A stretch of 64,000 nt of DNA from assembly GCA_963668025.2 (NCBI GenBank), contig CAXXTH010000017.1:224001-288000 (forward strand), written 5' to 3'. This document shows, in pieces, positions 45,544 through 64,000 of the stretch; within the stretch, counting starts at the first letter, position 1; every line of letters begins with the position of its first letter. Source of the DNA: Candidatus Hydrogenedentota bacterium (GTDB taxonomy: Bacteria > Hydrogenedentota > Hydrogenedentia > Hydrogenedentales > SLHB01). Under the pieces are notes generated by a model that ran no database searches, was not told the origin of the DNA, and worked only from the letters and a program-made list of their open reading frames with translations. Made by a program: the position numbers and the translations under genes.

Positions 45544-45565
45544 AAAACCGCTACATCGGACGGCT

Positions 45566-46207: not shown

Positions 46208-46248
46208 GCATCTAATAAGTGATACAGCCAAAGAAGGAGGATAGGGCA

Positions 46249-47124
46249 ATGAATCGCCATGGGTTTTCATTAAAGCTTGTTTTCCTCGCTATCACCGTCC
46301 TGCTAATGGCCGGGCTTCCGGCCATCGCACAGTCTCCAAAAGAGTCGGAATGTGAATCCCAACAACAAATAGACAAATGGGCCGATGAACTGTCCAAAAC
46401 ATCAAAACTCCGGTATGATAAAAAATATGATGAGGCGATCGCGTGCTACGACCGCGCCATCGAAATCTCCCCCAACGCCGAATACAAGGCCGAGACGTAT
46501 TTCCATAAGGCGCAAGGCCTGGAAACCTGGGATCGATATGAAGCCATCGCCAATTACCAAAAAGTATTAAGTGAAAAACCGACTGCCGCCCTGCGCGCGG
46601 AAACTTGCTTCCGGCTGGGCTCGTTGCATCGCAATATTTCGCTGGGGAAGAGCGAAGAGGAGGCAACGCAGATCGTCGAGACGGAATTCAGCAATGAAAA
46701 TTGCCTGCCCTATTTCGAGATGGGGGCCGCCGCCGCGGGCGAATATGACAAGTATGCGATGTCATGCCGTGTTTATGTAGCCTTTGTATATCAAGATACC
46801 GGCCGCACGCAAGAGGCGGAAGCCATACTCGCCAAACTAGCGGCGCTAGACCCATCCAAAGCAGAGCTTTTTCCCGATCAATTTCTAGTGTCCTGCCAGT
46901 CTCCTAGGCTTTTCTTTGTTCGCAAGGAAGAAACCCTTCAGCATGTCCAGATGACTCGCGAGATTGCCGCCGAGACTTTAGTGGAGTCTTGTATTGTCCA
47001 GCGGGATGATGAATCAACGATAGCTCGCCTGCAAGAACTCTGCGCAAGGTATCCCAAAACCCTGATTGCTCAAGAAGCAGAAAATAAAATCGCAACGATT
47101 GCTTCTACAACAAATCAATCGTAA
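46249..47124 (+). CDS. Secreted TPR-repeat protein, copy A
   Basis: AGGAGG RBS, signal peptide, YDEAIACYDRAIEISPN. Paralog of 60747..61616. Confidence 0.85.
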   Translation: MNRHGFSLKLVFLAITVLLMAGLPAIAQSPKESECESQQQIDKWADELSKTSKLRYDKKYDEAIACYDRAIEISPNAEYKAETYFHKAQGLETWDRYEAIANYQKVLSEKPTAALRAETCFRLGSLHRNISLGKSEEEATQIVETEFSNENCLPYFEMGAAAAGEYDKYAMSCRVYVAFVYQDTGRTQEAEAILAKLAALDPSKAELFPDQFLVSCQSPRLFFVRKEETLQHVQMTREIAAETLVESCIVQRDDESTIARLQELCARYPKTLIAQEAENKIATIASTTNQS

Positions 47125-47350: not shown

Positions 47351-47538
47351 AAATGCATATCTATTTTACCTTTTCCGCGATTCAGTTTTTTATTCGTGCC
47401 CATTGGTGTCAATTCGTGGTCAAAAAACGTTTCCCTGAAACTTCCCGGGCAATGCTAGTATTATATATTCTATTAATCATATTTCCCCAATATGTGCGCA
47501 GGCAATGTCCGCCACAAGTGGACAGGAGGGAAAGGCAA

Positions 47539-48591
47539 ATGAAGCGGCTGATGGTGTTGCTCATGGGATGTGCTTCGGTCTGGGCGTATTCGGATGAATC
47601 TACCGTTTCACTCAAGAGCATTTGGCAAGAGAAGACGGATATGTGCTTCTTTTCCCGGTTCAATCTGCCGTTCTCTCCTGCTGGAAGCTCAATGTCCGCT
47701 GCGCTAGTCAGCCAAATCAAAAAGAAACCCGGTTTGGCCTTATGGCAAATCAACAAATCAGGTTTTCAGCGCCTTGCTGAAATGGCTGAAGATTTCTATC
47801 CTAATGGGGCTGCATACGGTGACATTGATCAGGATAGCAAGCCCGAGTTTGTTTTTATTGGTTATCTCCCCGGTATAAATAGTCATGTAATTCTTGCTAT
47901 TAGGTATGTTAGCGAAATACTCGCGAGCACCTTTTATCCCATTCAAGAAAAAACAGAATTCCAGGGTCTTGCAATAGATGATATGGATGGAGACGGCAAA
48001 AATGAGATTGTCTACTACCGTGTAGACAAAGGCGCAGAGGAATACTGGGAAGGCTCTCTGGTGATGGCGCGCGTCGAGGGCGGCGAATTGAAAACCTTGG
48101 GTGAGTCAGGCGGACATCCCATGTCGGGGAGCATAGCGATTGCCGATTTCGACGGCGACAGTCTGCCGGAAGTGGCAGTGCTGGAAGGCCATGGAATGCG
48201 GACGAATGAAAAACTGCGTGAACGCGCCCCCCACTTGGCGGCCTATTCTTGGACGAATGGCCAATGGGTCAAGGAACCGAAAGCGTTGCTTCCGCTCGAC
48301 CCAGCAATGGAGTTGTTGGATTCCCCGAGTCTCGTGGCATGGAAAGACGGTGGCAAACAGAAGGCGCTGGTGGGATACTATCGGACCATATCCACCTACG
48401 AGATGTCGGACGGCAAATGGTCTGCCGGGGAAGTGGTCGTTACGCTCGATAAAAGCAGTATAGGCTGCCTCGGAACCGTGGACTTGGAAGGTAAAGGCAA
48501 GGAATCTATTTTGGCGTGGGGGAGTTTGCCTAGCGATGATCCTGAGAAGCCCGGTCCGCCTGCCATGTATGTCTACCAGCGCGAGAAGTAA
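47539..48591 (+). CDS. Secreted FG-GAP/VCBS beta-propeller protein, orphan paralog
   Basis: Start MKRL after AGGAGG. GDIDQDSKPE, DMDGDGKNE, ADFDGD..PE repeats, EEYWEGSL and C-terminal MYVYQREK. Confidence 0.85.
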   Translation: MKRLMVLLMGCASVWAYSDESTVSLKSIWQEKTDMCFFSRFNLPFSPAGSSMSAALVSQIKKKPGLALWQINKSGFQRLAEMAEDFYPNGAAYGDIDQDSKPEFVFIGYLPGINSHVILAIRYVSEILASTFYPIQEKTEFQGLAIDDMDGDGKNEIVYYRVDKGAEEYWEGSLVMARVEGGELKTLGESGGHPMSGSIAIADFDGDSLPEVAVLEGHGMRTNEKLRERAPHLAAYSWTNGQWVKEPKALLPLDPAMELLDSPSLVAWKDGGKQKALVGYYRTISTYEMSDGKWSAGEVVVTLDKSSIGCLGTVDLEGKGKESILAWGSLPSDDPEKPGPPAMYVYQREK

Positions 48592-48626
48592 ATAATCTCA
48601 CCTCGCGTTTGCGGGCAAACGCATAT

Positions 48627-51600
48627 CTACACTTCGCTCAATGCTTTGAGCAGGTTTTTCGTGGCGATGAGCATGCGGTCTGGGGTGTCCGCGTCTGGGG
48701 TGTAGGTGATGCAGGGGTCGCCCTGGAATGCGTATTGGATGCGCGGGCCGAAGTGTTGGCTGAGGGCCGTCCTCGAGGCGCGATTCAAGAAGCGGGCGGA
48801 CTCGAATTCGACGGCGATGGCGGTCTTGGCGGCGGCGATGCGTTTGACGCCGAGGTCCGCCGCTTGCGCGCGAATACGCATGATGTCGATGAGCCGCTTG
48901 ACGGGCGCAGGGATCGGCCCGAAGCGATCGGCGATTTCTGCGTTCATCTCATCCACTTCTTCGACGGTCATGGCGCTGGCGATGCGCTTATAGAGCGTGA
49001 GCTTCTGCGCCTCGGAGGGCACATACGCCTCGGGGATATGGGCGTCCACGGCCATGTCGAAGGCGGGCAGCACACGGTGGACCACCGGTTCGCCCTTGAG
49101 TTCGGCGATGGTCTCCTGGAGGAGCTGGCTATAGGTTTCAAGGCCGACGGTGGCGATGTGTCCGTGCTGTTCGCCGCCGAGGATGTTGCCGCAGCCTCGG
49201 ATTTCCATGTCGGCCATGGCGATGCGGAAGCCCGCGCCCAAGGTCGAGAAATCCTCCAACGCCTTGAGGCGTTTCTGGGCCACTTCCGTCAAGGCTTTGT
49301 CACCATTTACGAGCAAGTAGGCGAAGGCGCGGTGTTTGTAGCGTCCGACGCGCCCGCGCAACTGGTATAGCTCGGATAAGCCGAAACGGTCAGCGTCGTT
49401 GATGATAATGGTGTTGGCGTTCGGGATATCGATGCCGGAGCCGATGATGGTCGTGCAGACCAGCACATCGATCTCGTGGCGGATGAAGCGCGTCATGACG
49501 TGTTCGAGGTCGCCCTCGCGCATTTGCCCGTGGCCGATGGCGACCCGCGCCCGGGGTGCGAGCTTCTCGACAAGCGTGGCGAACAGCTCGATGGTCTGCA
49601 CGCGGTTATGAACAAAGAAGACCTGCCCTTGGCGCGAAAGCTCGCGTTCGAGCGCCTCGCGGATCAGGTCTTCACCGAATGGCTCGATACACGTATGGAC
49701 CGGCAGCCGGTCATTGGGGGCCGTGTTGATCAGGCTCATGTCGCGTACGCCCAACATCGAAAGGTTCAGCGTGCGCGGGATGGGCGTGGCCGTCATCGTC
49801 AGGACATCCACGATATTGCGGACTTGCTTGAGGCGCTCTTTTTGCGCCACGCCGAACCGGTGCTCCTCGTCGATGATGAGGAGGCCCAGATCCTTGAATT
49901 CGATGTCCTTCGAGATGAGGCGGTGCGTTCCGACCACGATATCCACGTCGCCGGACTTGAGTTTCTCGATGGTCTCTTTCTGCTCTTTGGGGCCTCGGAA
50001 CCGGCATAACAGGTCAACGCGCACGGGGAAATCGGCCAGGCGCTCGACGAAGTTCAAATAATGCTGTTCGGCCAAAACCGTCGTGGGCACGAGCAATGCG
50101 GCTTGCTTGCCGTCCTGCACGGTCTTGAATGCGGCGCGCAGGGCGACCTCGGTTTTTCCGTAGCCCACATCGCCACAGACGAGGCGGTCCATGGGTTTTA
50201 TCGATTCCATGTCGCGCTTAACATCCGTGATGGCGCGGGCCTGGTCGGGCGTCTCCTCGTAGGGGAAGGCGTCCTCGAATTCGATCTGCCAAGGCGAATC
50301 CGGTGCGAAGGCATGGCCCTCCTGGCTCTCGCGGGCGGCGTAAAGCTGGAGGAGTTCATTCGCCATATCTTTCACGGCTTTTTTAACGCGGGCCTTCGTG
50401 CGCGCCCATGTCGCCCCGCCGAGGCGGTCGATCTTGGGCATGGCCCCGTCGCCGCCGCTGAATTTCTGGATGGCGTCGATCTGGGTGACGGGCAAGTACA
50501 GCGTGTCGCCTTTGGCGTATTGGACCACCAGGAAATCGCCGGTTTTATCCGGGAAGCGCCGCATGCCGAGGTAGCGCCCGACGCCATGGCTGGCGTGGAC
50601 GACGAAGTCGCCGGACTTCAGATCACCCAGCGCGGTGATCGTCGAGCCGGCCTCGAAGCGGCGGCGGGAGCGCCGGATGTAATGGCGTCCGAACACCTCG
50701 CGTTCGCTCAGGATGGCCAGATTATCTTCATAGGAATCAAAACCCGCATGAATGCGCCCGATGTAGATGCGCAGATCGAAGCTGCTTTTGTCCGGCTGGT
50801 AACCATGCTCATCGAGTAATTCGAGCAGGCGCGTGCGCTCGCCCGTATTGTTGCAAATGAGCGCCACGGTATATTTTTTGCGGTCCCATTGTTCGAGCTG
50901 CTGCCAAAAATCCGTGGCGGGCGGCTCCCAGTTGCTCATCGAGCGCACGGGCGCGGCAATGCGCTCCGCCCCGGCGTCTTGCGCCACGTGCATCAGCCGG
51001 AGCTGGCGGAATGCTTCGAGCCGGGCGTAGGCGTCTTCCCACGGCATGATGTACTCGGAAACGCCGAACTGCTCCTCGAGTTTACGCGCTTCTTCTGCAA
51101 TCGCCAGCGGTTCATCGAGCGCCACGAGGGTGTTGGGCGGGAAATAATCCGCCAACGTAGCGAGTGCGTCTTTCCGTTCGTGGAGCAAGTGTTTTTCCGA
51201 ACGCGGCAGGAGCGCCACGCTGTCGGCGGGGCCAATGCTTCGCTGGGTCTCCGGTTCGAAACGGCGAATGGACTCGATCTCGTCACCAAAGAATTCGATG
51301 CGAAACGGCAGTTCGCTCGATATGGGGAACACATCAAAAATGCCGCCGCGCACGCTCATCTGGCCGCGTTGTTCGACCATGAGCTCCCGCTCATAGCCCA
51401 ATTTCGTGAGGCGCAGCAGGAGATCATCGAGATCATATTCCTCGCCCACGGCCAGCCGCACGGTGCGGCGTTCGAGATCCTCGCGGGGCGCGACATATTG
51501 CAGCATCGAGCGCAACGGAACCGCCGCGCACATGAGAGCGTCCTCGAAGGCCGACGCCAGATGCTGCAAGGTGTTCATACGTTCGGCGACGATATCGTCC

Positions 51601-51881
51601 GAGGGGTCCATGGCGTCGGAAGGAAGCACCTCCCAGGAAGGCAGCAGCAGCGCGCGGTCCGGCCCGGCGAATGCCGTCAGATCATCGAAAATGGATTCGG
51701 CTTCGATGCGCCCCGCCGTGAGGATGAGCAGCGGCGCGCCCAAGGCCTCCGCCGCCTGCACCGCCGCCAGCGTTTTGGCGGAACCCCACAGGCCGGTAAC
51801 ATCCATGGCGCGCCGCCCTTGTTCCGACAGGCGGTTGGCGATGAACCGGACGCAATTCAATTGAGGCAGCGTGATGTGCAT
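48627..51881 (-). CDS. mfd: Transcription-repair coupling factor
   Basis: RGGIFDVFP, HGVGRY.G, FPYEETPDQ, CGDVGYGKTEV, DEEHRFGV, TATPIPRTL, QLRGRVGR. Confidence 0.97.
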   Translation of the reverse strand: MHITLPQLNCVRFIANRLSEQGRRAMDVTGLWGSAKTLAAVQAAEALGAPLLILTAGRIEAESIFDDLTAFAGPDRALLLPSWEVLPSDAMDPSDDIVAERMNTLQHLASAFEDALMCAAVPLRSMLQYVAPREDLERRTVRLAVGEEYDLDDLLLRLTKLGYERELMVEQRGQMSVRGGIFDVFPISSELPFRIEFFGDEIESIRRFEPETQRSIGPADSVALLPRSEKHLLHERKDALATLADYFPPNTLVALDEPLAIAEEARKLEEQFGVSEYIMPWEDAYARLEAFRQLRLMHVAQDAGAERIAAPVRSMSNWEPPATDFWQQLEQWDRKKYTVALICNNTGERTRLLELLDEHGYQPDKSSFDLRIYIGRIHAGFDSYEDNLAILSEREVFGRHYIRRSRRRFEAGSTITALGDLKSGDFVVHASHGVGRYLGMRRFPDKTGDFLVVQYAKGDTLYLPVTQIDAIQKFSGGDGAMPKIDRLGGATWARTKARVKKAVKDMANELLQLYAARESQEGHAFAPDSPWQIEFEDAFPYEETPDQARAITDVKRDMESIKPMDRLVCGDVGYGKTEVALRAAFKTVQDGKQAALLVPTTVLAEQHYLNFVERLADFPVRVDLLCRFRGPKEQKETIEKLKSGDVDIVVGTHRLISKDIEFKDLGLLIIDEEHRFGVAQKERLKQVRNIVDVLTMTATPIPRTLNLSMLGVRDMSLINTAPNDRLPVHTCIEPFGEDLIREALERELSRQGQVFFVHNRVQTIELFATLVEKLAPRARVAIGHGQMREGDLEHVMTRFIRHEIDVLVCTTIIGSGIDIPNANTIIINDADRFGLSELYQLRGRVGRYKHRAFAYLLVNGDKALTEVAQKRLKALEDFSTLGAGFRIAMADMEIRGCGNILGGEQHGHIATVGLETYSQLLQETIAELKGEPVVHRVLPAFDMAVDAHIPEAYVPSEAQKLTLYKRIASAMTVEEVDEMNAEIADRFGPIPAPVKRLIDIMRIRAQAADLGVKRIAAAKTAIAVEFESARFLNRASRTALSQHFGPRIQYAFQGDPCITYTPDADTPDRMLIATKNLLKALSEV

Positions 51882-52151
51882 GGCGTGCTTCGCGGCTTCC
51901 GTGTTTGGGCTTTCAGGTAGGACTTGGAACGACAGGCCAAGACCTCTTATCATTGTACTCATGCATACATGGGCATTCCAAACGAGCCATGGTATTTGGG
52001 AATATCAGGATTATGTTCATCCATGGAACGTGGCATGGCCGTCCCAGCCATGTTTTGAGATGCATTTCTGAAATTAAGTGGGATGAGGTGGTGTGGGACC
52101 GGCGCCCTCGCCGGTCATCTGGGCCGATATACTGATTGCAATAGGTAAAAA

Positions 52152-53297
52152 ATGCCAACAAATAAACCGAAATCACTCCGCATGCGTGTGGTGTCTGGCG
52201 GGCCGTTTCAACGGCCCGCGGAACCCTACGAGCCTTGTTTCCGCCCGCCAGACGCTTCGAGGGCCGTGCAATTGCGGGCGTGTTTTCCGATTGCCGAGGC
52301 TGCGGGGCCAGGTACGGATTTCACGCGGATGCGGCGGCTTATGAATTGGGTGCGCAGCCGCTGGAATCATGGCTTCTCGACGGATGTGGGCGGCGCGGAC
52401 GCCCACATCTTGCTCGAAGCGGCGGCACAGGGCGCATCGTTTTGCTGCGGCCATTACGCCCACACGCTGGTCCAATGCGCCGTTTCGCTTGGCATCCCCG
52501 CGCGGGTGGTGAATTTATCCCGAAAAACCGCCGATTTCCCCTATGGATGCAAAGGCAATTTCGGCCATGTTGCAGCGGAAGCGTACTGCCGCGAAGCGGG
52601 GAAGTGGGTGCTGTTTGACGCCGATTTGAATTGCCATTTCGCACGCGGCGGCGAACCGCTCCATGCGCTGGATTTGCATCGGGCGTGGCATGGCGGCCAA
52701 GTGGACGGGATCGAGCAAGTCTTGGATGAGCCTTTTTTTGTGCAACCCCAGCCTTGCCAAGGCTATACCGCCGCGGACGTGCGCGGATTCTGGCGCGATT
52801 TTACGCGGCATCGCTCCATTGATTTCTACCACCATATTCAGACCTCGCTGGCGCAAGGCTTTACAGAGCAGGAGACGCCGGGAATGCCGGATCGCGTCCT
52901 GTGGTTTTCAGGCGAAGCGCACCCGCTCATGGCCATAAATTTCAGCGGCGACCTTGATCTCGACGCCCATGTGCTTACGGCTCGGGAAGAGCAGTTTAAC
53001 TGGCCTATCCAGCGCACCTATATCTTGGCGCATATGCTCGGAGAAACGCCCTCGCGCCGTGTTGAAGTGCGGCTGCAACACACCATGCCATTCTTCAGCT
53101 ATTTCGAGCTGGCGGTGAACAATGGCCCCTTTCGGCGCATGCCAGGGAATTACCACGTGTTGAATCTGCCCGATGGCCGTACGAAGGTGCGCGCCCGGTG
53201 TGTGGATGTTCTCGGGCTTCCTGGACATGAGGCGCATCTGGTGATTGAAGTGAAGGCGCTTGAGAGAAAGCCCCAGCGCCCAAAGAACCGAGGGTGA
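52152..53297 (+). CDS. Transglutaminase-like domain protein
   Basis: C-H-D triad in FCCGHYA, GIPAR, GHVAAE, KWVLFD. Confidence 0.8.
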   Translation: MPTNKPKSLRMRVVSGGPFQRPAEPYEPCFRPPDASRAVQLRACFPIAEAAGPGTDFTRMRRLMNWVRSRWNHGFSTDVGGADAHILLEAAAQGASFCCGHYAHTLVQCAVSLGIPARVVNLSRKTADFPYGCKGNFGHVAAEAYCREAGKWVLFDADLNCHFARGGEPLHALDLHRAWHGGQVDGIEQVLDEPFFVQPQPCQGYTAADVRGFWRDFTRHRSIDFYHHIQTSLAQGFTEQETPGMPDRVLWFSGEAHPLMAINFSGDLDLDAHVLTAREEQFNWPIQRTYILAHMLGETPSRRVEVRLQHTMPFFSYFELAVNNGPFRRMPGNYHVLNLPDGRTKVRARCVDVLGLPGHEAHLVIEVKALERKPQRPKNRG

Positions 53298-53823
53298 ATC
53301 CAGATGCCCGCCAGCAGTGATGCTTTACCCTTTTCTCCAAAACGTTCGAATCCAAGATTTGTAGGGTTGGGCTTACCCCACCGCTGCCTGCAATATAGTT
53401 ACACGCAGTTCTTTTTCCATATGTCATCCTCCTGTCCTAGCATAACAGAATTAAAGCATAAACGCACCAATATGTCTACTAAAATCTACTCTACCTACTT
53501 AAAAAGAAACACACGCTCACTACCAACTCAGTGTAAAATGGAGAAACCCCAGGCGGCAGTTTGATGCCGTTTTGGGGGTGCGGATTTCATGTGAATGCGA
53601 TTTTTCGACTCTGGGGAGATATAAAGCCGGGCATGGGGCATTTGGGGAAGACCCTCTCAAGAAATGCGCCCGTTAATGCAGAGGTATATACAACATGCAA
53701 AACGGTCGAATCTAGAACATAACTATTTGATATACATTGGTTAAAAATATAACTTTGGCAACTATGCAATGAATGTCGTTTGAGGGAATGCGGTTCGTAA
53801 CTATTAACAAGGAGAAAAAAAAC

Positions 53824-54024
53824 ATGGCGAATACTTTCAGGATTTCCCTTTGGTCGGGCGGCAAGGCCGTCATGGTCCACTACATCAACGAAACCCCAAA
53901 AATGAGCGAAGGCATCTGCGCGTTCCGGCTTGATGACGGCACTATCATCCGCATCATGGGCACCGTGTCCATCGAAGAAGGCACGTTCGCGGAACGTCCT
54001 ATCAGCGGACGGATCGGGCGGTAG
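53824..54024 (+). CDS. Small hypothetical protein (66 aa)
   Basis: AAGGAG RBS and host-like codon usage. Its 3' end is duplicated at 55626-55672. Confidence 0.65.
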   Translation: MANTFRISLWSGGKAVMVHYINETPKMSEGICAFRLDDGTIIRIMGTVSIEEGTFAERPISGRIGR

Positions 54025-54335
54025 AAAGTATGCCAATCCGCGTGGCATGGGTGCCTTGCCCATGCCACGCAGAGTATATTTCTTGGCATCCGGAAGTACA
54101 CGGTTTTGCCATATTTGGTCTCTGTGAGGCTTGTTCATGACTTGCGTGATTGGCATCAATCAAGTAAATTCATACAGAATAGGCCCCCTTTTGAAGCTTT
54201 CATCATGCCGCCAGTTCTCTAGACTGTTGATGATATATGGCTGTACGTCAATAACACTATTCGCTACACAACCGACAAAAGACGTGGCAAGATCGTAAAA
54301 TACGTGGCCCTGTGCGCTACGAAAGGAAAAGAAAA

Positions 54336-54455
54336 ATGATTAAAGGAATCCTTTATAAACTTGCATTGACTATCGGTTTGCTTTATTTGGTTATGATGGC
54401 ACTTGGCTTACTCGCAGTTGGGTTCGCTTGGCTACACAATATTTTGCATCCATAA
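54336..54455 (+). CDS. 39-aa single-TM small protein
   Basis: Below the ORF-track cutoff. MIKGILYKLALTIGLLYLVMMALGLLAVGFAWLHNILHP, preceded by AAAGGA. Confidence 0.4.
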   Translation: MIKGILYKLALTIGLLYLVMMALGLLAVGFAWLHNILHP

Positions 54456-54523
54456 GTGAAAGATGAAGAAGATTTATTAATCAGATTGTATCTTGATTAG
54501 TTGCATGGAGATCACTCTTCCCA

Positions 54524-55618
54524 ATGGATGCATTAACGAAGAATAGCGGCGTTCTTAACGGAGAACCTAGAAAATTAGACTATCGGGTGAGCGACCCCAA
54601 GAACAGTCCGCAACTTGACGTTTGGCAACAAAAATGGCTCGGTGCGCTCCCTCAAGTGCTGAACAGTTACAATCTATCTGCATACTCGGCCGAGTTTCTG
54701 CGCGCCAATGAGAACATCGTCTTTGGCGTGACGGAGAAGGAATCCGGCAACCGGTACGCCTTACGCCTGCACGACTCGAAGAACGGCGCATTCAGTCAAC
54801 TCCGCCGCGATGCCGCCTCCATCACCTCCGAACTGTTGTGGCTCGAAGCCCTTGCAAAAGAAACCGATGTTATTGCGCCACAACCGGTACGCACCATAGA
54901 CGGCGAACTGACGGTGGAAATCCTCCTCGACTCCTCGGACGGATGTATTAATGGTTCGCTCTTACGTTGGGTTGATGGCTCCAATTTCGACAAGGCCGTT
55001 CCCAACGCCGCATGGCTCGTGCGCGAAATCGGACGCACGCTTGCCCGCCTAGAGGAGCATGGCCGCTCATGGAATAAACCCGAAGGCTTCACCCGCCCCA
55101 CTTACGATCGGAGATACTTGGAGGAATCACTGCGCGTCATCTCCGATGGCATTCCTCTAAATGTCTTGAACGAAGCAGATTACGATATCATCAGCCGAAC
55201 CGCCCAGCATGTAGCTTCGGTCATGGACGAGCTTGGCGCGGGCAGCGAGGTATGGGGGCTTGGCCACTTTGACTTGGGAAGCAGCAATTGCCTCGTATTC
55301 GGAGAAGCCATTCGGCCGATTGACTTTTCCCTCTGTGGTTTCGGACATTATCTTTTCGATCTTGCCACCGCGATGGGCGATCTCCCGGTTGCGCATCGCG
55401 GGCCTTGCCTGGCGGGATATCGGGAAGCCACCGGCATGCCTAACGGCTATGTCCCATTGCTCGACGTATTTCTGATGATGAGCATCTTCAACTGCTGGGC
55501 GTTCCACATCCGCGACGAAAACCAACACCACTGGCTGAAACCACATATCGCGAAAGTGGTGCGGAATAAGTGCCCACTGGTATTGAACGGCGAGTCGTTT
55601 ATCCTGCGGATTCCATAA
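54524..55618 (+). CDS. APH/homoserine kinase type II-like phosphotransferase
   Basis: EN.VF, YALRLH, SELLWL.AL, HFDL..SN, IDF..CGFG.Y.FDLA. Confidence 0.85.
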   Translation: MDALTKNSGVLNGEPRKLDYRVSDPKNSPQLDVWQQKWLGALPQVLNSYNLSAYSAEFLRANENIVFGVTEKESGNRYALRLHDSKNGAFSQLRRDAASITSELLWLEALAKETDVIAPQPVRTIDGELTVEILLDSSDGCINGSLLRWVDGSNFDKAVPNAAWLVREIGRTLARLEEHGRSWNKPEGFTRPTYDRRYLEESLRVISDGIPLNVLNEADYDIISRTAQHVASVMDELGAGSEVWGLGHFDLGSSNCLVFGEAIRPIDFSLCGFGHYLFDLATAMGDLPVAHRGPCLAGYREATGMPNGYVPLLDVFLMMSIFNCWAFHIRDENQHHWLKPHIAKVVRNKCPLVLNGESFILRIP

Positions 55619-55625
55619 CGCGATA

Positions 55626-55672
55626 AAGGCGCCTTCGTGGAATGTCCTATCAGCGGACGGCTCGGGGGATAG
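55626..55672 (+). repeat. 47-bp imperfect direct repeat of 53978-54024
   Basis: 40/47 identical, and both copies end in TAG. Confidence 0.8.
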
Positions 55673-55722
55673 CGCTTAAGGCTAAAGCACTCACCGTTCA
55701 GGGGATGCTATTCCGAGGCTGT

Positions 55723-56796
55723 TCATTTCTCTCGCTGGTAGACATGGATAGTGCTCCGGAATCGATCATAGGGGCCTTCCGGTTTTTCTTTCGGAAACAG
55801 CACCCACGCTAAAATGGACTCTTGGCCTTTCCCATCGAGGTCCACCGCACCAATGCTGCGTATGCTACCCTTTTCAAGTGAAACCAGCGCTTCTCCTGGC
55901 GACCAATTTCCGTTCGACAACTCATATACAACAATCTTTCTTGATTGCTCCATCAACAGGTTGCTCTTTCCTCTATCTTTCCAGACCGCAAGGCCCGGCG
56001 CCGCGTCCAGTTCAATGTTCGGATCCAGAGCAAGCCACGCCTCCGGCTCCTTGGCCCATTGATTATCTACCCAGGTGTACGCGGACAAATAGGGAGCACG
56101 CATAGTCGGGCTTTCATGTTCCCGTATTCCTCGTCCTTCCAGCACGGCTGCTTTCTGCCGGTGGTCCCCGTCAAAGTCGGCTATCACGACACTGCCCACC
56201 AGAGGATGGCCGCCTGACTCGCCGAGCACCTTCAGTTCGCCGCCTTCCACGCGCGCCATCACCAAAGAGCCTTCCCAATACTCCTCAGCTGCTTCCTCGA
56301 CACGATAGTAGACGATCTCGCTTTTGCCATCGCCATCCATGTCACCTACCGCAAGGCCCCGAAAATCGTCCCCGTTTGGAATGGGATACAGCGTCGTTTC
56401 CAGTGCGCTATCTTTCAATCTTGCGGAAAGAAGTACATGATGTTGCTGCGACGCAGGCAAATAACCCATGAAGGCAAATTCTGGGATTTGATCGTGATCA
56501 ATGTCCCCATATGCCGCTCCGCTGGGAGAAAAACTATCGGAGGTTTCCGTGATACGACTCAGACCAGTCCTATTCAGGTGCGATATCGCTATATGCGGGA
56601 AAGATGCATCGATACGCACGATGCTTGCCAACATTGCAGGCTCATTTTTGTTGGCAGAGACAGTAGGCATATTCCCGTCCGGAAAATAAAATACGCTTTT
56701 TTCACCTTCCCATATATATTTGAGTGAAACGGTTGATTCTTCCGTATATGCCCACACAGGTAAACACAGCATGAAAAGCAGCGCCAGCCGGTTCAT
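55723..56796 (-). CDS. Secreted FG-GAP beta-propeller protein, array member 3
   Basis: Signal peptide, GDIDHD, GDMDGDGKSE, EEYWEGSL, HVYQREK. Confidence 0.88.
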   Translation of the reverse strand: MNRLALLFMLCLPVWAYTEESTVSLKYIWEGEKSVFYFPDGNMPTVSANKNEPAMLASIVRIDASFPHIAISHLNRTGLSRITETSDSFSPSGAAYGDIDHDQIPEFAFMGYLPASQQHHVLLSARLKDSALETTLYPIPNGDDFRGLAVGDMDGDGKSEIVYYRVEEAAEEYWEGSLVMARVEGGELKVLGESGGHPLVGSVVIADFDGDHRQKAAVLEGRGIREHESPTMRAPYLSAYTWVDNQWAKEPEAWLALDPNIELDAAPGLAVWKDRGKSNLLMEQSRKIVVYELSNGNWSPGEALVSLEKGSIRSIGAVDLDGKGQESILAWVLFPKEKPEGPYDRFRSTIHVYQREK

Positions 56797-56969
56797 CGCC
56801 GTTCCCTCCTGCCCACACGCAGTGGGCCATCCCTTCGCTTCGACGGGGAAAATGGTTTACTGCATATACTATACGAACAATAATTGGAAAGTTGCGGAGA
56901 AACGTGTCTATGTCTTTACCACGAATGGACGCCAATGGGCACGAATGCCTTTCCCTTTGACACGCAAGT

Positions 56970-57008
56970 AAAACGCCAGAGGCCTTCCTATGGAAAAGCC
57001 CCTGGCGT
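56970..57008 (-). terminator. Terminator repeated between array members
   Basis: acgccagaggccttcctatggaaaagcccctggcgt, identical at 58265-58300. Confidence 0.75.
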
Positions 57009-57038
57009 ATTCTCTCTAGTTTTTTTATAAAAACCGGT

Positions 57039-58091
57039 TCAGTTCTCTCGCTGGTAGACATACATGGCAGGTTGGCCAAGATTGTCAGGTTCATTACCAG
57101 GCAAATGCACCCATGCCAATATGGATTCCTTGCCTTTGCCTTCCAGATCAGTGGCTCCGAGGCATCTGATGCTCCCCTTATCGATTGTGGCGACCACTTC
57201 CCCGTCAGACCATTTGCCTTCCGACATCTCGTAGGCCTTAATGGTCTGGTAAGACGCCACCAGCGCCTTCGGTTTGCCGCCGTCTTTCCATGCGACAAGA
57301 CTCGGTGACTCGCACAAATCTATACTTGGATCTACCGGAAGCATCGCCTTTGGTTCTTTGGCCCATTGGCCATCCACCCAGGAATAGGCCGCCAAGTGGG
57401 GGGCGCGCTCATAAATTTCCTCATTCTTCCCCAAACCATGCCCCTCCAGCACGGCCACTTCCCGCTGGTTGTCGCCATCAAAATCGGCAATCGCAATGCT
57501 TCCCACCATACGGTGCCCGTTTGATTCGCCCAGGGTCTTCAATTCACCGCCCTCGACGCGCGCCATCACCAAGGAACCTTCCCAATACTCTTCTCCAACT
57601 TTATCTTTTCGATAGTAGACAACTTCATTGTTACCATCGCCGTCCATGTCGCCCACCGCAATGCCCCGGTAACTAGATCCCTTCTCGATAGGATAGACAG
57701 TACTCGCGAGTTCGTCGCCCTCAAGTCTAGCAGCAACAATCACACGGGCATTTGAATCGCGTATAAATCCGATGAATATGAACTCGGATTTGCCATCATG
57801 GTCAATGTCGCCGTAGGCGGCTCCATTAGGGTAGAAATCTTCGGCTTTTTCAGCAAGACGCTGCATCCCTGAATTGCTTATTCGCCATAGAGATAAGACG
57901 CGGGTCACGGTGTTGCAATCGGCCAGCATGGAAGGTCTATCGATTCCGGCAGGGGACAGCGGTATATTGAGTACAAGAGACGGAGATATATCCGTTTTCT
58001 CTCGCCATATGCTTTTGAGCGGAACTGTTGATTCGTCTGCATATGCACAAGCGGCCAAACACACCAAGAGCAACCATATGAGCCGGTTCAT
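57039..58091 (-). CDS. Secreted FG-GAP beta-propeller protein, array member 2
   Basis: Start MNRL after AGGAGG. Same motifs; ends MYVYQREN. Confidence 0.88.
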   Translation of the reverse strand: MNRLIWLLLVCLAACAYADESTVPLKSIWREKTDISPSLVLNIPLSPAGIDRPSMLADCNTVTRVLSLWRISNSGMQRLAEKAEDFYPNGAAYGDIDHDGKSEFIFIGFIRDSNARVIVAARLEGDELASTVYPIEKGSSYRGIAVGDMDGDGNNEVVYYRKDKVGEEYWEGSLVMARVEGGELKTLGESNGHRMVGSIAIADFDGDNQREVAVLEGHGLGKNEEIYERAPHLAAYSWVDGQWAKEPKAMLPVDPSIDLCESPSLVAWKDGGKPKALVASYQTIKAYEMSEGKWSDGEVVATIDKGSIRCLGATDLEGKGKESILAWVHLPGNEPDNLGQPAMYVYQREN

Positions 58092-58264
58092 CGTCGTTCC
58101 CTCCTGTCCATATGTAATGGACAATATCTCTACATCAACGGGCAAAAATTCTCATGAGATATATGATACTAGCAATACTCGGGAAGTTTCACGAAACCAA
58201 AGTTTTTCGATCACCAATACACGCCAATGGGCACGAATGCCTAGCTATTCGCCATACAAGCAGA

Positions 58265-58300
58265 ACGCCAGAGGCCTTCCTATGGAAAAGCCCCTGGCGT
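58265..58300 (-). terminator. Terminator repeated between array members
   Basis: Identical to 56973-57008. Confidence 0.7.
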
Positions 58301-58327
58301 ATTGCCTATTAGCAAAGCCGAAGCCGG

Positions 58328-59394
58328 TCAATTTTCTCGCTGATAGACATACATGGCGTATTGATTTCGGCTAGGCTTGCCATCCTTTTCCTTGTTTGGA
58401 ACCTGAATCCACGCTAAGATAGAATCGCTTCCATCGCCTTTGAGGTCCACCGCTCCAATATTCTTCACATCGCCTGCTCCAATAGTGAAAAGCGCGGTTG
58501 GAGCCGTCCATGCGCCGCTTTGCATGTCATCGGCATATATGGTTTGCCCGTGAAGCAATATGATTTTCTGATTACCGCGATCATTCCATCGGGCAAGCAT
58601 GGGCGGGGGCATGAAATCCCAAGTGGTATCGAGAGGCAGCGCCGCTTTGGGCTCCGTGTTCCATTTGCCATCGCTCCAGGAATATGCAGCCAAGAATGGC
58701 GCATAGCTACGATGGGTTTGCCCAACGTCTCGACCCTGCACTACGGCTGCTTCCGGCCGGTTGTCGCCATCGAAATCTCCAACCACCACACTGTCAACCA
58801 ACGGAAGCTTGGGCAGTTCCCCGAGTATGTTCACCTCGCCTCCCTCGATGCGCGCCATGACCAGTGTCCCCTCCCAGTATTCATCCATGAGGCTATCGAC
58901 TCGGTAATAGACGATTTCGTCACGTCCATCGCCATCCATGTCGCCAACGGAAATGCCTCGGAAGCTATGGCTCTTCGGAATGGGATATAACGTTGATTTG
59001 GATGTTTCTCCATCCATTCTTACAGCAAGAATCACTTGCTGCCCGGTGCCCACTGGAATGCCAATGAAGATGAACTCCGGAATGCTATCGCCGTTTATAT
59101 CGCCATACGCTGACCCGTTTATAATGAACTGGCTCGGGATGCTTTTTGAGCGGTTTAAGCCGGTTTCACTCATATTCCAGAACGTTAGTTCGGATGGTTT
59201 TGGGAAGAGATGGTCTCAGCCATGAAGATCGCCGGGGCATCGCCTTTTGCGGGAACAGTCGATATCGCCTTAAACGGCGGCAAAGTGCATCCTTCTTCCG
59301 CTTTCCATGTATGTTTCAAGATAATGTTAGGTTCTTCGGCAAAGAGTGACAAGGAAAAGGTTAAGTACACCAAAAGTGCTACCTTCATTTTCAT
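58328..59394 (-). pseudogene. FG-GAP beta-propeller protein, array member 1, frameshifted near 59185-59215
   Basis: The 69-aa ORF 59185..59394 supplies the signal peptide and LKHTW. An alternative frame continues LTFWNMSETGLNR, aligning with LSLWRISNSGMQR of the paralog. Confidence 0.8.
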
Positions 59395-59472
59395 ATTACA
59401 TTCCTCCTTACTTAGAAAAAATATTACATTTTATCTAGAGTGACCCACAAAACGATTGGAATAGGCTAATTT

Positions 59473-60696
59473 TTAAAATGGAAGATTGTCGTAGTCCATC
59501 CAGTCTACATGCAAAGCATTGTGTGGATCTAGACCTCCGCACCAATAAAAGTAGTGTTCATTCAGCACGCCGAGAATTACATCCTCGATGTAGTCAACAT
59601 CATCAGTTCTTCCCGGATTATTGCTATCTGGTATAGGCGATAAATCAATAGCATAACCATATTGGTGTACACTTTCCCAAGATGATCCTTGTAGTGTTTC
59701 ATTATATTCAGGATTTCGATATCCTTCATTAATAGGTAAGTTTGCGCTAGGATTATTTGCCCATGTTCTGTACATTTGGACAAAGGTATCATATTCAGAA
59801 AGTACAATTGTTCGAAGCAGAATAACAGCTCCGCTAAACCAGTCCCGTGGGGGCACCTTTATGTCGTGATCGACGTACATTTGCCGTATCTTATCTGTTG
59901 CACTCTGAGTAGAAGTGCTTGCTAATGATATGTTTGCAACGGTCGCTTGTACGCGAATCGTCCAATTTTCGGGCCGGTTTGTCGCTCTAGGATCGTGATC
60001 TGGCACGGTCGCCGAGGCGGTGAACGTATCTGTATCGCTTGCGCTGGTGGCGCTTATATTGGTCCAAGTTGGCGGGTAGGCCTGTAAAATCCAATCAGCG
60101 GCGTAATTGGTCTTAACAGTTATGACGCAAGAGGTTTCGGTGCTCGTGATAAACGAGGTGTATGTATTTGGACTCCCTGTTGTTACGAGTGTTGGATAAG
60201 GCGAGCGCCCCACTTCAACTGAAGTGATGTTGAAAACTTTGTATTCTCTCCATGCTTGCAATTGTCCATAGCCGTCTATATCTAGTAGACTTCCGACAAC
60301 ATCATCTCCCTTGACCGGAACATCATCCTCAAAAAGTGATGCTCGAAGTGTGGACAAGCTATGATCCATAGGCACATAGTACCTCACAGAAACGCCGGTA
60401 TCTCCATTGATGAAATAGCCGCCTGGGCAATACCATCTCGGCCATCCTGATTTGAGCTGGTCCATCTCCAGTGCATAGGTGTCAAGATTAATATCCAAAT
60501 CCCCGGTTGCCCTAGTTCCCGTAAAAGTAATTATGGAACCCGGGCATATATATTCACAATTTGGGCCTGTTATCGTGCCTGCAAGCAAATCTTGTCCTTG
60601 CCAATTCCCTGTGCCAATTCGAGGAAAGGGGGAATAAGCACCCATGGATGCCGCACAAAACAGCACTATAAGTAGCGTAGAGCATATAGCCTTCAT
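59473..60696 (-). CDS. Secreted protein with C-terminal peptidase M15-like (D-Ala-D-Ala Zn-peptidase) domain
   Basis: Signal peptide. GYRNPEYN...S.HQYGYAIDL (SxHxxGxAxD) and a final HVD. AT-rich relative to flanks. Confidence 0.75.
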   Translation of the reverse strand: MKAICSTLLIVLFCAASMGAYSPFPRIGTGNWQGQDLLAGTITGPNCEYICPGSIITFTGTRATGDLDINLDTYALEMDQLKSGWPRWYCPGGYFINGDTGVSVRYYVPMDHSLSTLRASLFEDDVPVKGDDVVGSLLDIDGYGQLQAWREYKVFNITSVEVGRSPYPTLVTTGSPNTYTSFITSTETSCVITVKTNYAADWILQAYPPTWTNISATSASDTDTFTASATVPDHDPRATNRPENWTIRVQATVANISLASTSTQSATDKIRQMYVDHDIKVPPRDWFSGAVILLRTIVLSEYDTFVQMYRTWANNPSANLPINEGYRNPEYNETLQGSSWESVHQYGYAIDLSPIPDSNNPGRTDDVDYIEDVILGVLNEHYFYWCGGLDPHNALHVDWMDYDNLPF

Positions 60697-60746
60697 GATT
60701 TCGCCTCCCGTATAAGCGCCCATTTACCCCGCTGGTTTAAAAGACA

Positions 60747-61616
60747 TCAGTGTTGGATGGAATTGATCTCATCGATTTTCGCCTGCGCTTCTTCGGCGAT
60801 CAGCGTATGGGGATACCCCGCGCAGAATTCTTGCATCCGCTTGAGTGTCAATTCGTCTTCGCCCGGGATGGCATTGAAGTTGATCAACTGCTTGGCGGCT
60901 CCTTCTCGAATATACTGGACATATTGTAGGGTTTCCCCTTTGCGTTCGAAGAAGGATTTGGGCGACAGGAAGGAATATAGAAATTTTTCCGGGAAAAGCT
61001 CCGCCTTGGAGGGGTCTAGATACGCCAGTTTGATGAGAATGGCGTCCGCTTCTTCTTTTCGCCCCAGATCATAGTACACCAGCGCCACATAGATGCGGCA
61101 TGACATGGCGCATCTATCGTATTCGCCCGCGGCGGCGGCCCCCATCTCGAAATAGGGCAGGCAATTCGCACTGCAGAATTCCGTCTCGACGATCTGCTTC
61201 TCTTCTTCCAAGCTCTTCCCCAGCGAGATGTTGCGATGCAGCGAGCCAAGCCGGAAGCAGGTTTCGGCGCGCAGGGCGGGCGTCGGTTCTTCGTTCAATA
61301 CTTGCTGGTAAGCAGCGATGGATTCCTGGCGATCCCAGGTTTCCAGCCTTTCCGCTTTATGGAAATACGTTTCGGCCTTGTATTGGGGATTGGGGGCGAT
61401 CTCGGCGGCGCAGTCATAACACGCCTTCGCTTCTTCGGTTTTTTTGTCGAGCAGAAGCTGCTCCGCCTTTGCGAGCTCATCGGCCCATTTCGTTATTTGT
61501 TGCGGAGATACACATTCCGGCTCTTTTGGAGACTGTGCGCTGGCCGGAAGCCCGGCCATGAGCAGGACAGCGATAGCGAGGAAAACAAGCATTAATGAAA
61601 ACCCATGGCGATTCAT
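60747..61616 (-). CDS. Secreted TPR-repeat protein, copy B
   Basis: Paralog of 46249..47124 with a shared upstream region. Confidence 0.85.
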   Translation of the reverse strand: MNRHGFSLMLVFLAIAVLLMAGLPASAQSPKEPECVSPQQITKWADELAKAEQLLLDKKTEEAKACYDCAAEIAPNPQYKAETYFHKAERLETWDRQESIAAYQQVLNEEPTPALRAETCFRLGSLHRNISLGKSLEEEKQIVETEFCSANCLPYFEMGAAAAGEYDRCAMSCRIYVALVYYDLGRKEEADAILIKLAYLDPSKAELFPEKFLYSFLSPKSFFERKGETLQYVQYIREGAAKQLINFNAIPGEDELTLKRMQEFCAGYPHTLIAEEAQAKIDEINSIQH

Positions 61617-61753
61617 TGCCCTATCCTCCTTCTTTGGCTGTACCACTTACTAGATGCAGTATGTGCCTGTTTTGGAAATCCGTCAAGAACTTTTTTAGCA
61701 CAGGTAGCAGTTGACACATCGGATAAAATTGGAAAAATAGCCGCGTGTTACAT

Positions 61754-61864
61754 GGGTTTGGGATCTAGGGTCTAGGGTATAGGGTCTAAGATTCCGAATG
61801 CCGAATCTCAGACCCAGACCCCAGACCCCAAACCCCAGACCCTAAACCCTAGACCCCAAACCCT
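61754..61864. repeat. Inverted heptamer tandem repeats (GGGTCTA / AGACCCC-type)
   Basis: About 5 units gggtcta facing about 8 units agacccc/aaaccct. Confidence 0.85.
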
Positions 61865-63330
61865 CAGAATCCCGCCACGAGCGGCGGCAGCGGCGCGGGG
61901 CCGCCGGCGTAGCGCGTCGTGTCGAGATAATGGCCCAGCAGGGCGCAGCGGTCGGCGTCGATGATGTGGTCGTTTCCCTTTTCGTAAATGATTTGCCCCG
62001 ATATGCCCACGGAATAGGTGTGCGAGGCGTATTGCGATTCCCGGGCAGGCAGGGGCGGAAACACGAGGGTGTGTTCGGCCAGGCGGCGCTCGATGAGGCC
62101 CGTCATGAATTGCTTCACGGGACGCCGGTCCGGGCTGCCATCGGGCAAGGGTTCGAGGTCGATGCTGCTTCCGAATTCGACAGAGACGATCTTCGCGCAC
62201 CATTCCTCGCCCTGCGCCATGAGGCCGTGGGCGATGGCGCGGCCGTTGTTGCCCGCGTCGATGGCGATGGCGCGGAAGGCGTACACGGCGTCGAGGCACG
62301 TGATCACCTCCTGCTGCCGGGCGTAGTTGACGCCGTGAAGATGCGCCCGCAACACGTTCACCAGATGCGGCCCTTCGGCGCGGTAGACCACCAACTCCGA
62401 CGGATCCCGCGCGTAGCCTAAGTCACACCCCATATAGTACGCGCCCGGCGCAACGCCCGAGGGCGCGTCGAACGGCTCCTGCTCGCCCAATTCGATGTTC
62501 TGGAAGTCCAGCCCTCCCTGCACGCACGCCAGGTAGTCATCGAGTTTGAAGACCGCGAAGGCGGGCGAACCGTGGCGGCCCAGGACGCGGTGAATATAGC
62601 CCGGCGAATCCTTGCCGCCGTAGAGGTTCGCCAGTTCGGCGTCCTTCTCGGGCGTGAACTCCGGATTCAACGAGGAGGGCCAGTTGTATTGCTCGATGTC
62701 GCGCATGCGTGTCATGCGATGGAACGTGTTGCGCAAGCCGTTGGGCACGCCATAGACCCAGCGCCAGCCGCCGCCGTTCAGGGCTTGATAGAGTTCGCCC
62801 CACGCAGTCTCGGTCATTTCCTGGGCCTCGTCCACGACCTGCCAGTCCACGTGCATGCCCTGGAAATTCACGCCGCCCGGCCCCGCGATACGCCCCCACA
62901 GCACAAAACCGTTCGTGAAGCGCAGATGCCACGAGGGCGTGCGCTTCACTTCGGCGAGGCAGGCCGCAAGTTCGGGCGTGGTTTGGAAACGGCGCACGAG
63001 GCGGTCCATAAGCGGATAGAGATGGTTTTCGCAGGGTGTGGCGATGAGCATCTCGGCGTCGGGCCGCGCCACGGAGGCCCATGCGGCGATAAGCTCGATC
63101 TCGGTCGTCTTGCCCACATCACGCCCGTCGCAATGCACCTTGCGCGGCGCGTAGGACTCGAGCGAATCCATTTGGTAGCCACGCGCCGCCCATGGCTGTC
63201 CTTCCCGGTCTTTCAGATAGGCGGCGGCGAACCGGGTCCGGCGATGCACGAGGAGCCACGCCCGAATCTCCGCTTCACCGAGGCCCCGCTTCTTGAGTTG
63301 GTTGCGCGCGCGGCGCTCGTTAAACGTCAT
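61864..63330 (-). CDS. Phage terminase large subunit-like protein
   Basis: Q motif (RGYQ), Walker A GRDVGKT, Walker B QVVDEAQ, nuclease YMGCDLG, AIDAGNNG, NDHIIDA.R. Confidence 0.82.
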   Translation of the reverse strand: MTFNERRARNQLKKRGLGEAEIRAWLLVHRRTRFAAAYLKDREGQPWAARGYQMDSLESYAPRKVHCDGRDVGKTTEIELIAAWASVARPDAEMLIATPCENHLYPLMDRLVRRFQTTPELAACLAEVKRTPSWHLRFTNGFVLWGRIAGPGGVNFQGMHVDWQVVDEAQEMTETAWGELYQALNGGGWRWVYGVPNGLRNTFHRMTRMRDIEQYNWPSSLNPEFTPEKDAELANLYGGKDSPGYIHRVLGRHGSPAFAVFKLDDYLACVQGGLDFQNIELGEQEPFDAPSGVAPGAYYMGCDLGYARDPSELVVYRAEGPHLVNVLRAHLHGVNYARQQEVITCLDAVYAFRAIAIDAGNNGRAIAHGLMAQGEEWCAKIVSVEFGSSIDLEPLPDGSPDRRPVKQFMTGLIERRLAEHTLVFPPLPARESQYASHTYSVGISGQIIYEKGNDHIIDADRCALLGHYLDTTRYAGGPAPLPPLVAGF

Positions 63331-63352
63331 AACAACTCCTGCCCGATTAATC

Positions 63353-63407
63353 GCCACAAAAAGCACAAGAGACACAGAGATTTTGCACCTTTTGTGCTTC
63401 TTGTGGC
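63353..63407. repeat. Inverted 9-mer repeat hairpin between the terminase genes
   Basis: gccacaaaaagcacaa ... ttgtgcttcttgtggc. Confidence 0.7.
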
Positions 63408-63411
63408 CAAA

Positions 63412-63870
63412 TCATTCATCCTTCTTCTGTTCCTTCGCGGAACTGGCCGTGCGCTTGGCTTCATACGCCAGGGCGTCTTCGAGCACGCCTTCCGACGCCT
63501 TGAGTATGGGCTTCATAGCGTCAGCCAACCCTTTGCCGATAGGCGACCCTAGCCGTTCACAGGATTCTTCGAGTTCCTTCATCGCTTTGCGCAGCCTTTC
63601 CCTTGCCTTGGCCGCCGACTCGACGGCGGCGGTTTTGGGTTCGTCCGTGGCGGCCAGCGTTTCCTCCGCGCCGAGCACATCCAGAAACGACGCCAGCACA
63701 TCATGGACCCGCAACACCACGAGCGGCGTCTGGCGGACGCCATGGCTTTTCAGAAACGCCGCCATGTCCTCCACTAGGCATGCGGCAAGCGCCCGGTGCG
63801 TATCCCTGCACGCATATTCGCTCAAGCGCTCGATGAGCAGCAGCCGCCACAAATCTTGCTCCACGGGCAT
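63412..63870 (-). CDS. Helical hypothetical protein, positional candidate for small terminase
   Basis: GGGAGG RBS, coiled-coil region, directly upstream of the terL-like gene. Confidence 0.55.
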   Translation of the reverse strand: MPVEQDLWRLLLIERLSEYACRDTHRALAACLVEDMAAFLKSHGVRQTPLVVLRVHDVLASFLDVLGAEETLAATDEPKTAAVESAAKARERLRKAMKELEESCERLGSPIGKGLADAMKPILKASEGVLEDALAYEAKRTASSAKEQKKDE

Positions 63871-64000
63871 TGATGGCCTCCCTCTTCACGCCACTCCCCT
63901 ATCTCTCGGGCGTTTTTGTTGCACTTGGAAAGACCATGATTGCTGCGGTATAGTTTTTTCATGGAAATTCCTCTGTATAACAAAGACATGCAAGTGCGCC

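Follow-up and report, generated by a model that had tools for sequence, protein, structure and literature searches.

Exported LAS-type peptidase genes paired with FG-GAP propeller genes: a candidate mobile effector-immunity cassette in a Hydrogenedentota bacterium

What is the function of a gene cluster in which every product appears to be exported, and in which a putative cell-wall peptidase is followed by a series of diverged repeat proteins? Such a cluster lies within a 64,000-nucleotide (nt) stretch of DNA from a Candidatus Hydrogenedentota bacterium, the whole of which is referred to here as the window. Five co-oriented open reading frames (ORFs) occupy positions 55723-61713 on the minus strand and specify TPR1, a peptidase and FG-GAP propellers A, B and C; each ORF begins with a leader of the signal-peptide type, as judged by eye from a charged start, a hydrophobic core and an A-x-A-like site. 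An earlier interpretation made from the letters alone (the sequence-only reading) had described this arrangement correctly, including a peptidase of 407 amino acids (aa), a length that holds from the second Met (416 aa in full), and had proposed that the cluster encodes a toxin with a TPR chaperone or adaptor and propeller immunity proteins. All three FG-GAP paralogs that it listed are present (45-50 bits), the first with an interrupted frame in the window; a second locus with TPR2 and propeller D was missed. The genes of both loci are as follows.

60747..61646, minus strand: TPR1, an exported TPR protein (299 aa from a GTG; the likely start is the ATG at 61616)
59473..60723, minus strand: exported LAS/M15-like zinc peptidase (416 aa; 407 aa when started at the second Met)
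58328..59394, minus strand: FG-GAP propeller A, directly behind the peptidase gene (FG-GAP_3 50.5 bits; frame interrupted in the window)
57039..58091, minus strand: FG-GAP propeller B (350 aa with signal peptide; FG-GAP_3 45.3 bits)
55723..56796, minus strand: FG-GAP propeller C (357 aa with signal peptide; FG-GAP_3 48.4 bits)
46219..47124, plus strand: TPR2, a paralog of TPR1 (BLASTP) in the inverted second locus
47539..48591, plus strand: FG-GAP propeller D, which follows TPR2 without an intervening peptidase gene

Scans of 185,579 species genomes, of metagenome contigs and of the genomes of one order yielded 12 related loci in other lineages. At 11 of these loci an FG-GAP-like ORF with D-x-D-x-DG loops lies right behind the peptidase gene and often overlaps it (at locus L033 the partner ORF is cut by the contig end). 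All nine partner ORFs tested matched FG-GAP_3 with E values from 4e-18 to 6.5e-4, four of them at or above the cut-off, and one locus (L039) contains two tandem partners, like the array in the window. The partner at L017 aligned with propeller B in BLASTP (29% identity over 204 aa, E 3e-19), non-repeat stretches included. All of the partners carry signal peptides by eye and the L017 protein also has a C-terminal membrane anchor, features that would place the partners where a wall peptidase would act. The pair was found in at least six genomic contexts, including beside tgt (L018, L036, L039), between rplK and rplA (L034, L071) and beside leuS (L017). Of 24 genomes from the order to which the L018 genome belongs, three contain the peptidase; these same three contain the partner, and there were no orphan partners. 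From these data we conclude that the peptidase and the FG-GAP propeller constitute a conserved, strictly co-occurring gene pair, which supports this part of the sequence-only reading, and that the two genes are adjacent in the manner of effector-immunity pairs.

The twelfth locus (L040), together with the more distant L047, encodes another peptidase subfamily in which a shared HEAT-like ORF takes the place of the FG-GAP partner. At these loci (L040 2972-5165, L047 5293-7555) a peptidase of 473-490 aa ending in H-V-H-x-D-W-R-G is followed by an ORF of 277-290 aa with a weak HEAT_2 match. At L034 (1528-3930) and L071 (371-2832), both Ignavibacteria-type, the pair is situated within the nusG-rplKAJL-rpoB cluster, an unusual site for an accessory cassette. 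Another locus, L041 (3667-9163), contains a gene for a 984-aa protein that has seven D-x-D-x-DG loops and weakly matches the core of the peptidase (E 2e-7); the ORF behind it, of 857 aa, has four such loops. The larger protein may be a fused repeat-peptidase form.

The domain structure of the window peptidase was examined with AlphaFold2 using a 43-sequence alignment. The whole model (predicted local distance difference test, pLDDT, of 82) comprised a signal helix, two beta-sandwich domains and an alpha/beta domain, and the C-terminal domain folded alone reached a pLDDT of 93. The model and its structure matches delimit three domains.

60588..60319, minus strand: immunoglobulin (Ig)-like domain following the signal peptide, aa 46-135
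60276..59908, minus strand: second Ig-like domain, aa 150-272
59907..59476, minus strand: helix-extended LAS domain, aa 273-416

When the whole model was used as a Foldseek query, proteins with tandem Ig-like domains made up the list, among them intimin D00-D0 (E 3.6e-6) and S-layer proteins. A structure search of aa 288-416 against 48,161 representative chains placed LAS proteins in all of the top five rows, with Z-scores of 8.2-8.6, a borderline range in which chance folds occur too; the LAS matches were ShhN (8.6), Hh (8.4), LysB4 (8.3), Ply500 (8.2), VldE (7.6) and VanXYg (6.7). Foldseek with the C-terminal domain alone likewise returned mostly LAS enzymes (Ply500, LdcB, 1lbu, LysB4, LysECD7, VldE, ChiX and hedgehogs), Ply500 being the best match (E 0.01, probability 0.99). 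A phmmer search of PDB sequences with the peptidase found nothing, and the sole motif match of the family profile in that collection was the Streptomyces albus Zn DD-carboxypeptidase 1lbu (E 0.031).

The peptidase contains the motif GYR..S351-x-H353..G-x-A-x-D360..H405-V-D. The predicted zinc triad, an H-x6-D pair plus a distal His (H353, D360 and H405), is invariant in an alignment of the 11 closest sequences, as are R336, S351, D374 and D375 and, in a family-specific N-terminal helix, Q273, D277, R280, D285 and K289. In a 45-sequence alignment S351, H353 and D360 are invariant and H405 is nearly so. The proposal that the C-terminus is of the M15/LAS zinc-peptidase type was therefore supported by the fold matches, by the profile match to 1lbu and by homologs that exceed the Peptidase_M15_3 cut-off. 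The profile check suggested along with that proposal came out divided, as the window protein itself was below the Pfam cut-off while four homologs (P0005, P0007, P0008 and P0014) passed Peptidase_M15_3 with 26.4-33.8 bits against a cut-off of 23.2. For this reason we assign the peptidase, which is single copy in the genome, to a new, divergent subfamily within the LAS superfamily, outside Pfam Peptidase_M15_3 and Peptidase_M15_4.

The peptidase family is rare and modular. An exhaustive phmmer search of 1.84 billion representatives recovered 43 proteins with E <= 0.001, of which 15 had E <= 1e-10; one of them (P0004) shares the same architecture at 49% identity. The mid-domain plus LAS unit was also seen in a protein of 1213 aa and behind two other kinds of module, one with InlB-B repeats and one PKD-like. 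The N-domain alone has five relatives among the same representatives (P0004, P0011, P0029, P0023 and P0038). Two of these, P0023 and P0038, are short, and two of the three full-length ones (P0011 and P0029) join the N-domain to unrelated C-termini, an outcome in favor of the sequence-only reading, which had called for a check on whether the C-terminal domains vary. No Pfam family was found for the alternative C-termini of P0011 and P0029; that of P0011 carries an HExxH motif, and an Atlas search with it gave scores under 0.9 only. Polymorphic toxin systems combine a constant N-domain with varied C-termini, and in this case an alternative C-terminus was seen in two proteins only.

Propellers A, B and C scored 45-50 bits with FG-GAP_3 (cut-off 26.9) and are 46-49% identical pairwise (B and C 49%), and propeller D is 65% identical to B. 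The nearest Atlas clusters of propeller B are all FG-GAP and generic (score 0.95). By these sequence criteria the paralogs are assigned to the FG-GAP/VCBS beta-propeller repeat proteins. Propeller A starts 78 nt behind the peptidase gene with a strong ribosome binding site (RBS) of its own, and two copies of an intergenic element separate the propeller genes from each other.

56920..57011, minus strand: intergenic element between B and C, consisting of a 16-bp hairpin with a T tail plus a conserved box, TTCGTGCCCATTGGCGT
58212..58303, minus strand: second copy, between A and B (direct repeat D2; the two copies are 86% identical)

The first copy includes a terminator-like hairpin at 57008-56973, the 16-bp hairpin is present behind both A and B, and D is preceded by part of the element (inverted repeats I6, I7 and I9). 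B, C and D share an upstream element with a conserved box and an identical RBS region, which A is without. Promoter and terminator counts in the region were no higher than in shuffled sequence, and no RNA run was identified among the public sequencing runs that match this DNA. One contig joint in run X2 (58263>56972) falls inside the repeated element. Run X4, from another study and 90-95% alike, has contigs over parts of B, C and TPR1; that the peptidase gene is uncovered there is no evidence of its absence. Complex prediction with peptidase aa 162-416 and mature propeller B gave an interaction prediction score from aligned errors (ipSAE) of 0.00 in two of two runs, a result that we counted neither way.

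The distribution of these genes is patchy. The peptidase, the propeller family and the TPR were absent from 60 genomes of the same family and order, in which weak generic FG-GAP matches were the only ones found, and among 5.8 billion proteins searched by word index the sole matches were those encoded in the window itself, three propellers and two TPR proteins. Neither NCBIfam nor PHROGs assigned a family to the peptidase, TPR or propeller. The base composition of the cluster is also foreign to its surroundings: G+C content at third codon positions (GC3) is 0.40-0.64 in the cluster genes versus about 0.8 in the flanking genes. The most AT-rich gene of the region is that of the peptidase (GC 0.45, GC3 0.40, compared to GC3 values of 0.79-0.81 for the flanking Mfd and terminase-like TerL genes). 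The best reading of the patchy distribution and foreign composition is that the peptidase-propeller cassette is mobile and was horizontally acquired.

Taken together, these results led us to propose that the locus contains a mobile two-gene cassette for a Sec-exported cell-wall peptidase and a periplasmic propeller inhibitor, i.e. an effector-immunity pair, with spare propeller copies, an interpretation that we judge to have about an even chance of being correct. According to this proposal the first gene would specify a Sec-exported modular enzyme whose divergent LAS (M15/hedgehog-type) zinc peptidase domain is borne on two beta-sandwich domains of the Ig-like kind and most likely cleaves the peptides of peptidoglycan. 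The product of the second gene, an exported FG-GAP beta-propeller, would bind and block the enzyme in the periplasm of the producer as its immunity protein or inhibitor. Propeller A would be cotranscribed with the peptidase, and B, C and D, under upstream elements of their own (B and C being set apart by hairpins), would be spare or orphan immunity genes. The enzyme might reach competitors through a secretin-based system or by release from the cell, while the TPR would be a lineage-specific periplasmic partner of the propellers and not of the peptidase. We favor effector and immunity functions because both proteins carry export signals, the fold is one that cuts peptidoglycan peptides, the partner gene has been multiplied with its own upstream elements and one partner is an orphan, and because the cassette is patchy and compositionally foreign and a related subfamily has another repeat protein in the same position. 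The exchange for a HEAT-like partner at L040 and L047 can be likened to effector families that swap immunity families.

Several observations weigh against this proposal. Apart from the borderline Z-scores, there was no Foldseek match of the C-terminal domain at E <= 0.001, and the window peptidase reached 20.0 bits with Peptidase_M15_4 against a cut-off of 25. VanX, LdcB and Ply500-type enzymes have a Glu or Asp three residues before the last His (E/D-x-x-H), which we take to be the catalytic acid; 9 of the 11 family members have an Asn at this position, and the window protein reads H-N-A-L-H. The H-x-H form that a passage of PMC6027127 names is also missing from the window peptidase, being restricted to the Ignavibacteria-type and L040/L047 members. 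With an Asn at the acid position and no H-x-H, catalysis by the window protein is likely but cannot be taken for granted. Propeller A is split over two frames in the assembly, a signal-peptide piece (59394..59185) and a body (59215..58328), with the break near a C3/A4 run at 59198-59204. One independent low-depth Logan contig from public run X1, made from the likely source sample (depth 3.3), has an extra G behind 59201 (homopolymer, 59201/59202) that restores a continuous frame, and contigs of run X2 break at 59157-59234, spanning the same place; hence the interruption may be an assembly error or a variable homopolymer. No dedicated delivery marker (type V, type VI or type VII secretion system, Rhs etc.) was recognized among the window ORFs examined. 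Moreover, many of the related loci come from related Ignavibacteria-like organisms, so that there are fewer than 12 independent cases. Finally, strict co-occurrence without orphan partners fits an obligate enzyme-cofactor pair equally well.

This last point leads to a reading in which the propeller is an obligate activator, scaffold or membrane anchor of an enzyme that remodels the producer's own peptidoglycan or processes a surface protein, with no antagonism involved. Besides the presence of peptidase and partner in exactly the same 3 of 24 genomes, the location of the pair amid housekeeping genes, inside the rplK-rplA operon (L034, L071) and beside tgt (L018, L036, L039), would be expected from such a function, as would the lack of a nearby secretion or killing system. 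Nor was TssC/VipB, a type VI secretion system (T6SS) sheath gene, found in the genome, which is 93.75% complete; this result extends to the genome what had been noted earlier about T6SS markers. A housekeeping function is nevertheless difficult to reconcile with the patchy distribution (3 of 24 genomes in that order and 0 of 60 relatives) and foreign composition. In addition, the partner gene exists in several copies that have separate upstream elements, one copy lacks a peptidase, and the N-terminal modules on the peptidase are swappable. We consider a self-envelope role doubtful on this balance. It is less probable still that the protein is a hydrolase secreted together with a binding subunit and used in feeding or adhesion. 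Calcium-dependent propellers would then direct the enzyme to the walls of prey, to detritus or to a surface, and propeller diversity would reflect different targets. The C-terminal membrane anchor of the L017 partner would hold the partner on the producer, and the partners are encoded separately, with hairpins and upstream elements of their own, rather than as fused targeting domains, which makes this explanation unlikely even though FG-GAP repeats with D-x-D-x-DG loops are present and surface- or adhesin-type Ig-like domains (intimin, S-layer proteins) head the whole-model Foldseek list. The seven secretins in the genome would allow export under this explanation. The genome also contains 66 DUF1559-type genes, and many DUF1559-type genes are typical of the PVC group.

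The gene directly upstream of TPR1 (61864-63375, minus strand) resembles a large terminase subunit (phrog_2, E 3e-19), and phage endolysins (Ply500, LysB4, LysECD7) are among the closest solved LAS enzymes, which raises the question of whether the peptidase is the endolysin in a remnant of a prophage lysis module. This gene has a host-like GC3 of 0.81. No other recognizable phage gene was found in the 16 kb beyond it, where genes for an Mla transporter, a SpoIIE-FHA-GAF phosphatase and DUF2961 proteins are located. The peptidase matches no PHROG, and 2.9 million viral contigs contained just four weak core-motif matches to it. Furthermore, a Sec signal peptide and a pair of Ig-like domains are part of the protein, and related loci are found amid housekeeping genes. 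With a lone terminase-like gene, no further PHROG matches and no close viral relatives, we rejected prophage lysis as the identity of the locus; it is highly improbable.

We also considered the role of the TPR protein, which had been suggested to be a chaperone or adaptor for the effector. TPR1 contains a single repeat that barely exceeds the Pfam TPR_8 cut-off (25.8 versus 25.7 bits), TPR2 matches several precomputed TPR families, and the two proteins are 71% identical over 299 aa (BLASTP, E 1e-154). The second locus is located 8 kb away in inverted orientation and consists of TPR2, a 414-nt gap and propeller D; it contains no peptidase gene. The upstream regions and first codons of the two TPR genes (46158-46391 versus 61474-61707) are 91% identical over 234 nt (I3) compared to 77% for the rest of the genes, which suggests gene conversion or a constrained regulatory region. 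TPR relatives were absent from the 60 related genomes and, beyond the two copies of this genome, from the search of 5.8 billion proteins, and a TPR gene adjoins the peptidase gene at 0 of the 12 related loci. We conclude that the TPR lies outside the conserved cassette and is peculiar to this genome within the searches made. As a TPR gene precedes a propeller gene in both loci, with or without a peptidase, and the other loci are TPR-free, the partner of the TPR, if any, is the propeller, and the chaperone hypothesis was abandoned. Propeller D bears on a further point, as occurrence of propellers independently of the peptidase had been named as evidence against an effector-immunity pair; such independence was observed once, for D in this genome, and not in the 24 genomes of the L018 order.

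Other features of the region were noted. A long, imperfect hairpin at 61752-61870 consists of short repeats of the GGGTYT type together with their complement; it lies just upstream of TPR1, where it overlaps the terminase-like gene at its 3' end. In an Rfam search of 45500-64000 the only matches were sub-threshold, miRNA-like ones to a hairpin, and those to this hairpin are of that kind. A tRNA search of 40000-64000 found none. Direct repeats of 52 nt (53973-54024 and 55621-55672, 83% identical) bracket an APH-family phosphotransferase gene (54524..55618), which is adjoined by a low-GC stretch (0.43-0.47 at 53500-54500) without a recognizable gene. A transglutaminase-core protein (52152-53297, plus strand; Pfam E 1e-9) is encoded beside Mfd, between the two inverted TPR-propeller loci.

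If the propellers do inhibit the peptidase, the cassette would bring to bacterial antagonism an effector family and an immunity fold that are both new, in poorly studied phyla without T6SS. The propellers would then be natural protein inhibitors of LAS/M15 enzymes, a group that includes VanX/VanY-type enzymes and many endolysins, and could serve as structural probes. Even if the alternative of an enzyme with an obligate partner were correct, the strictly coupled peptidase-propeller pair would be a defined new two-gene envelope module.

How does this cassette compare with known systems? Its peptidase has the same fold, in the structure search, as the LAS/M15 peptidoglycan enzymes 1lbu, LdcB, VanXY, VldE, Ply500, LysB4 and ChiX, as well as the same S-x-H-x-x-G-x-A-x-D plus distal His triad and the same Arg of G-Y-R. 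It differs from them in sequence (about 14-17% identity) and in having an extra N-terminal helix, the invariant D374-D375 pair, two Ig-like domains and a signal peptide. The layout of the cassette is comparable to that of T6SS pairs of the Tse1/Tsi1 type, with spare immunity genes in those systems and candidate ones here; Tse1 has an amidase fold. Parts of PMC3391265 describe Tse1/Tsi1 as a wall-cutting enzyme encoded beside an exported all-beta immunity protein that neutralizes it in the periplasm. The cassette is distinguished from that pair by the failure to find a T6SS sheath gene in the genome, by the LAS fold of the putative effector and by the FG-GAP repeat partner.

Sec-exported polymorphic toxins offer a further parallel, as the peptidase has a signal peptide, swappable modules and multiple candidate protective genes downstream. 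Portions of the survey by Zhang et al. (2012, PMC3482391) list TPR and beta-propeller repeats among Sec-type toxin architectures and state that no beta-propeller domain had come to light among immunity proteins. Unlike polymorphic toxins, the system in the window includes no Rhs, HINT or pre-toxin domain. A literature search for FG-GAP or beta-propeller immunity proteins with M15 or peptidoglycan effectors showed no such pair among the matches listed (supplementary files were outside its scope). What is new here is the recurrent peptidase-then-FG-GAP pairing across lineages.

A precedent for the proposed inhibition is Hedgehog, the N-domain of which (ShhN) was the top structural match of the C-terminal domain (Z 8.6). 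The binding domain of its partner Hhip is a beta-propeller. According to the relevant passages of PMC6027127, a loop of Hhip blocks the zinc site of LAS-fold ShhN, which provides a structural precedent for inhibiting a LAS domain; the likeness is one of analogy and implies no sequence kinship between the partners. We suggest, tentatively and with somewhat less confidence than we place in the effector-immunity reading of the locus, that the FG-GAP propellers may be a new inhibitor class for LAS zinc peptidases, part of an undescribed mobile effector-immunity cassette of PVC- and Ignavibacteria-type bacteria that operates without a contact-dependent secretion machine and would be a bacterial counterpart of Hhip–Hedgehog.

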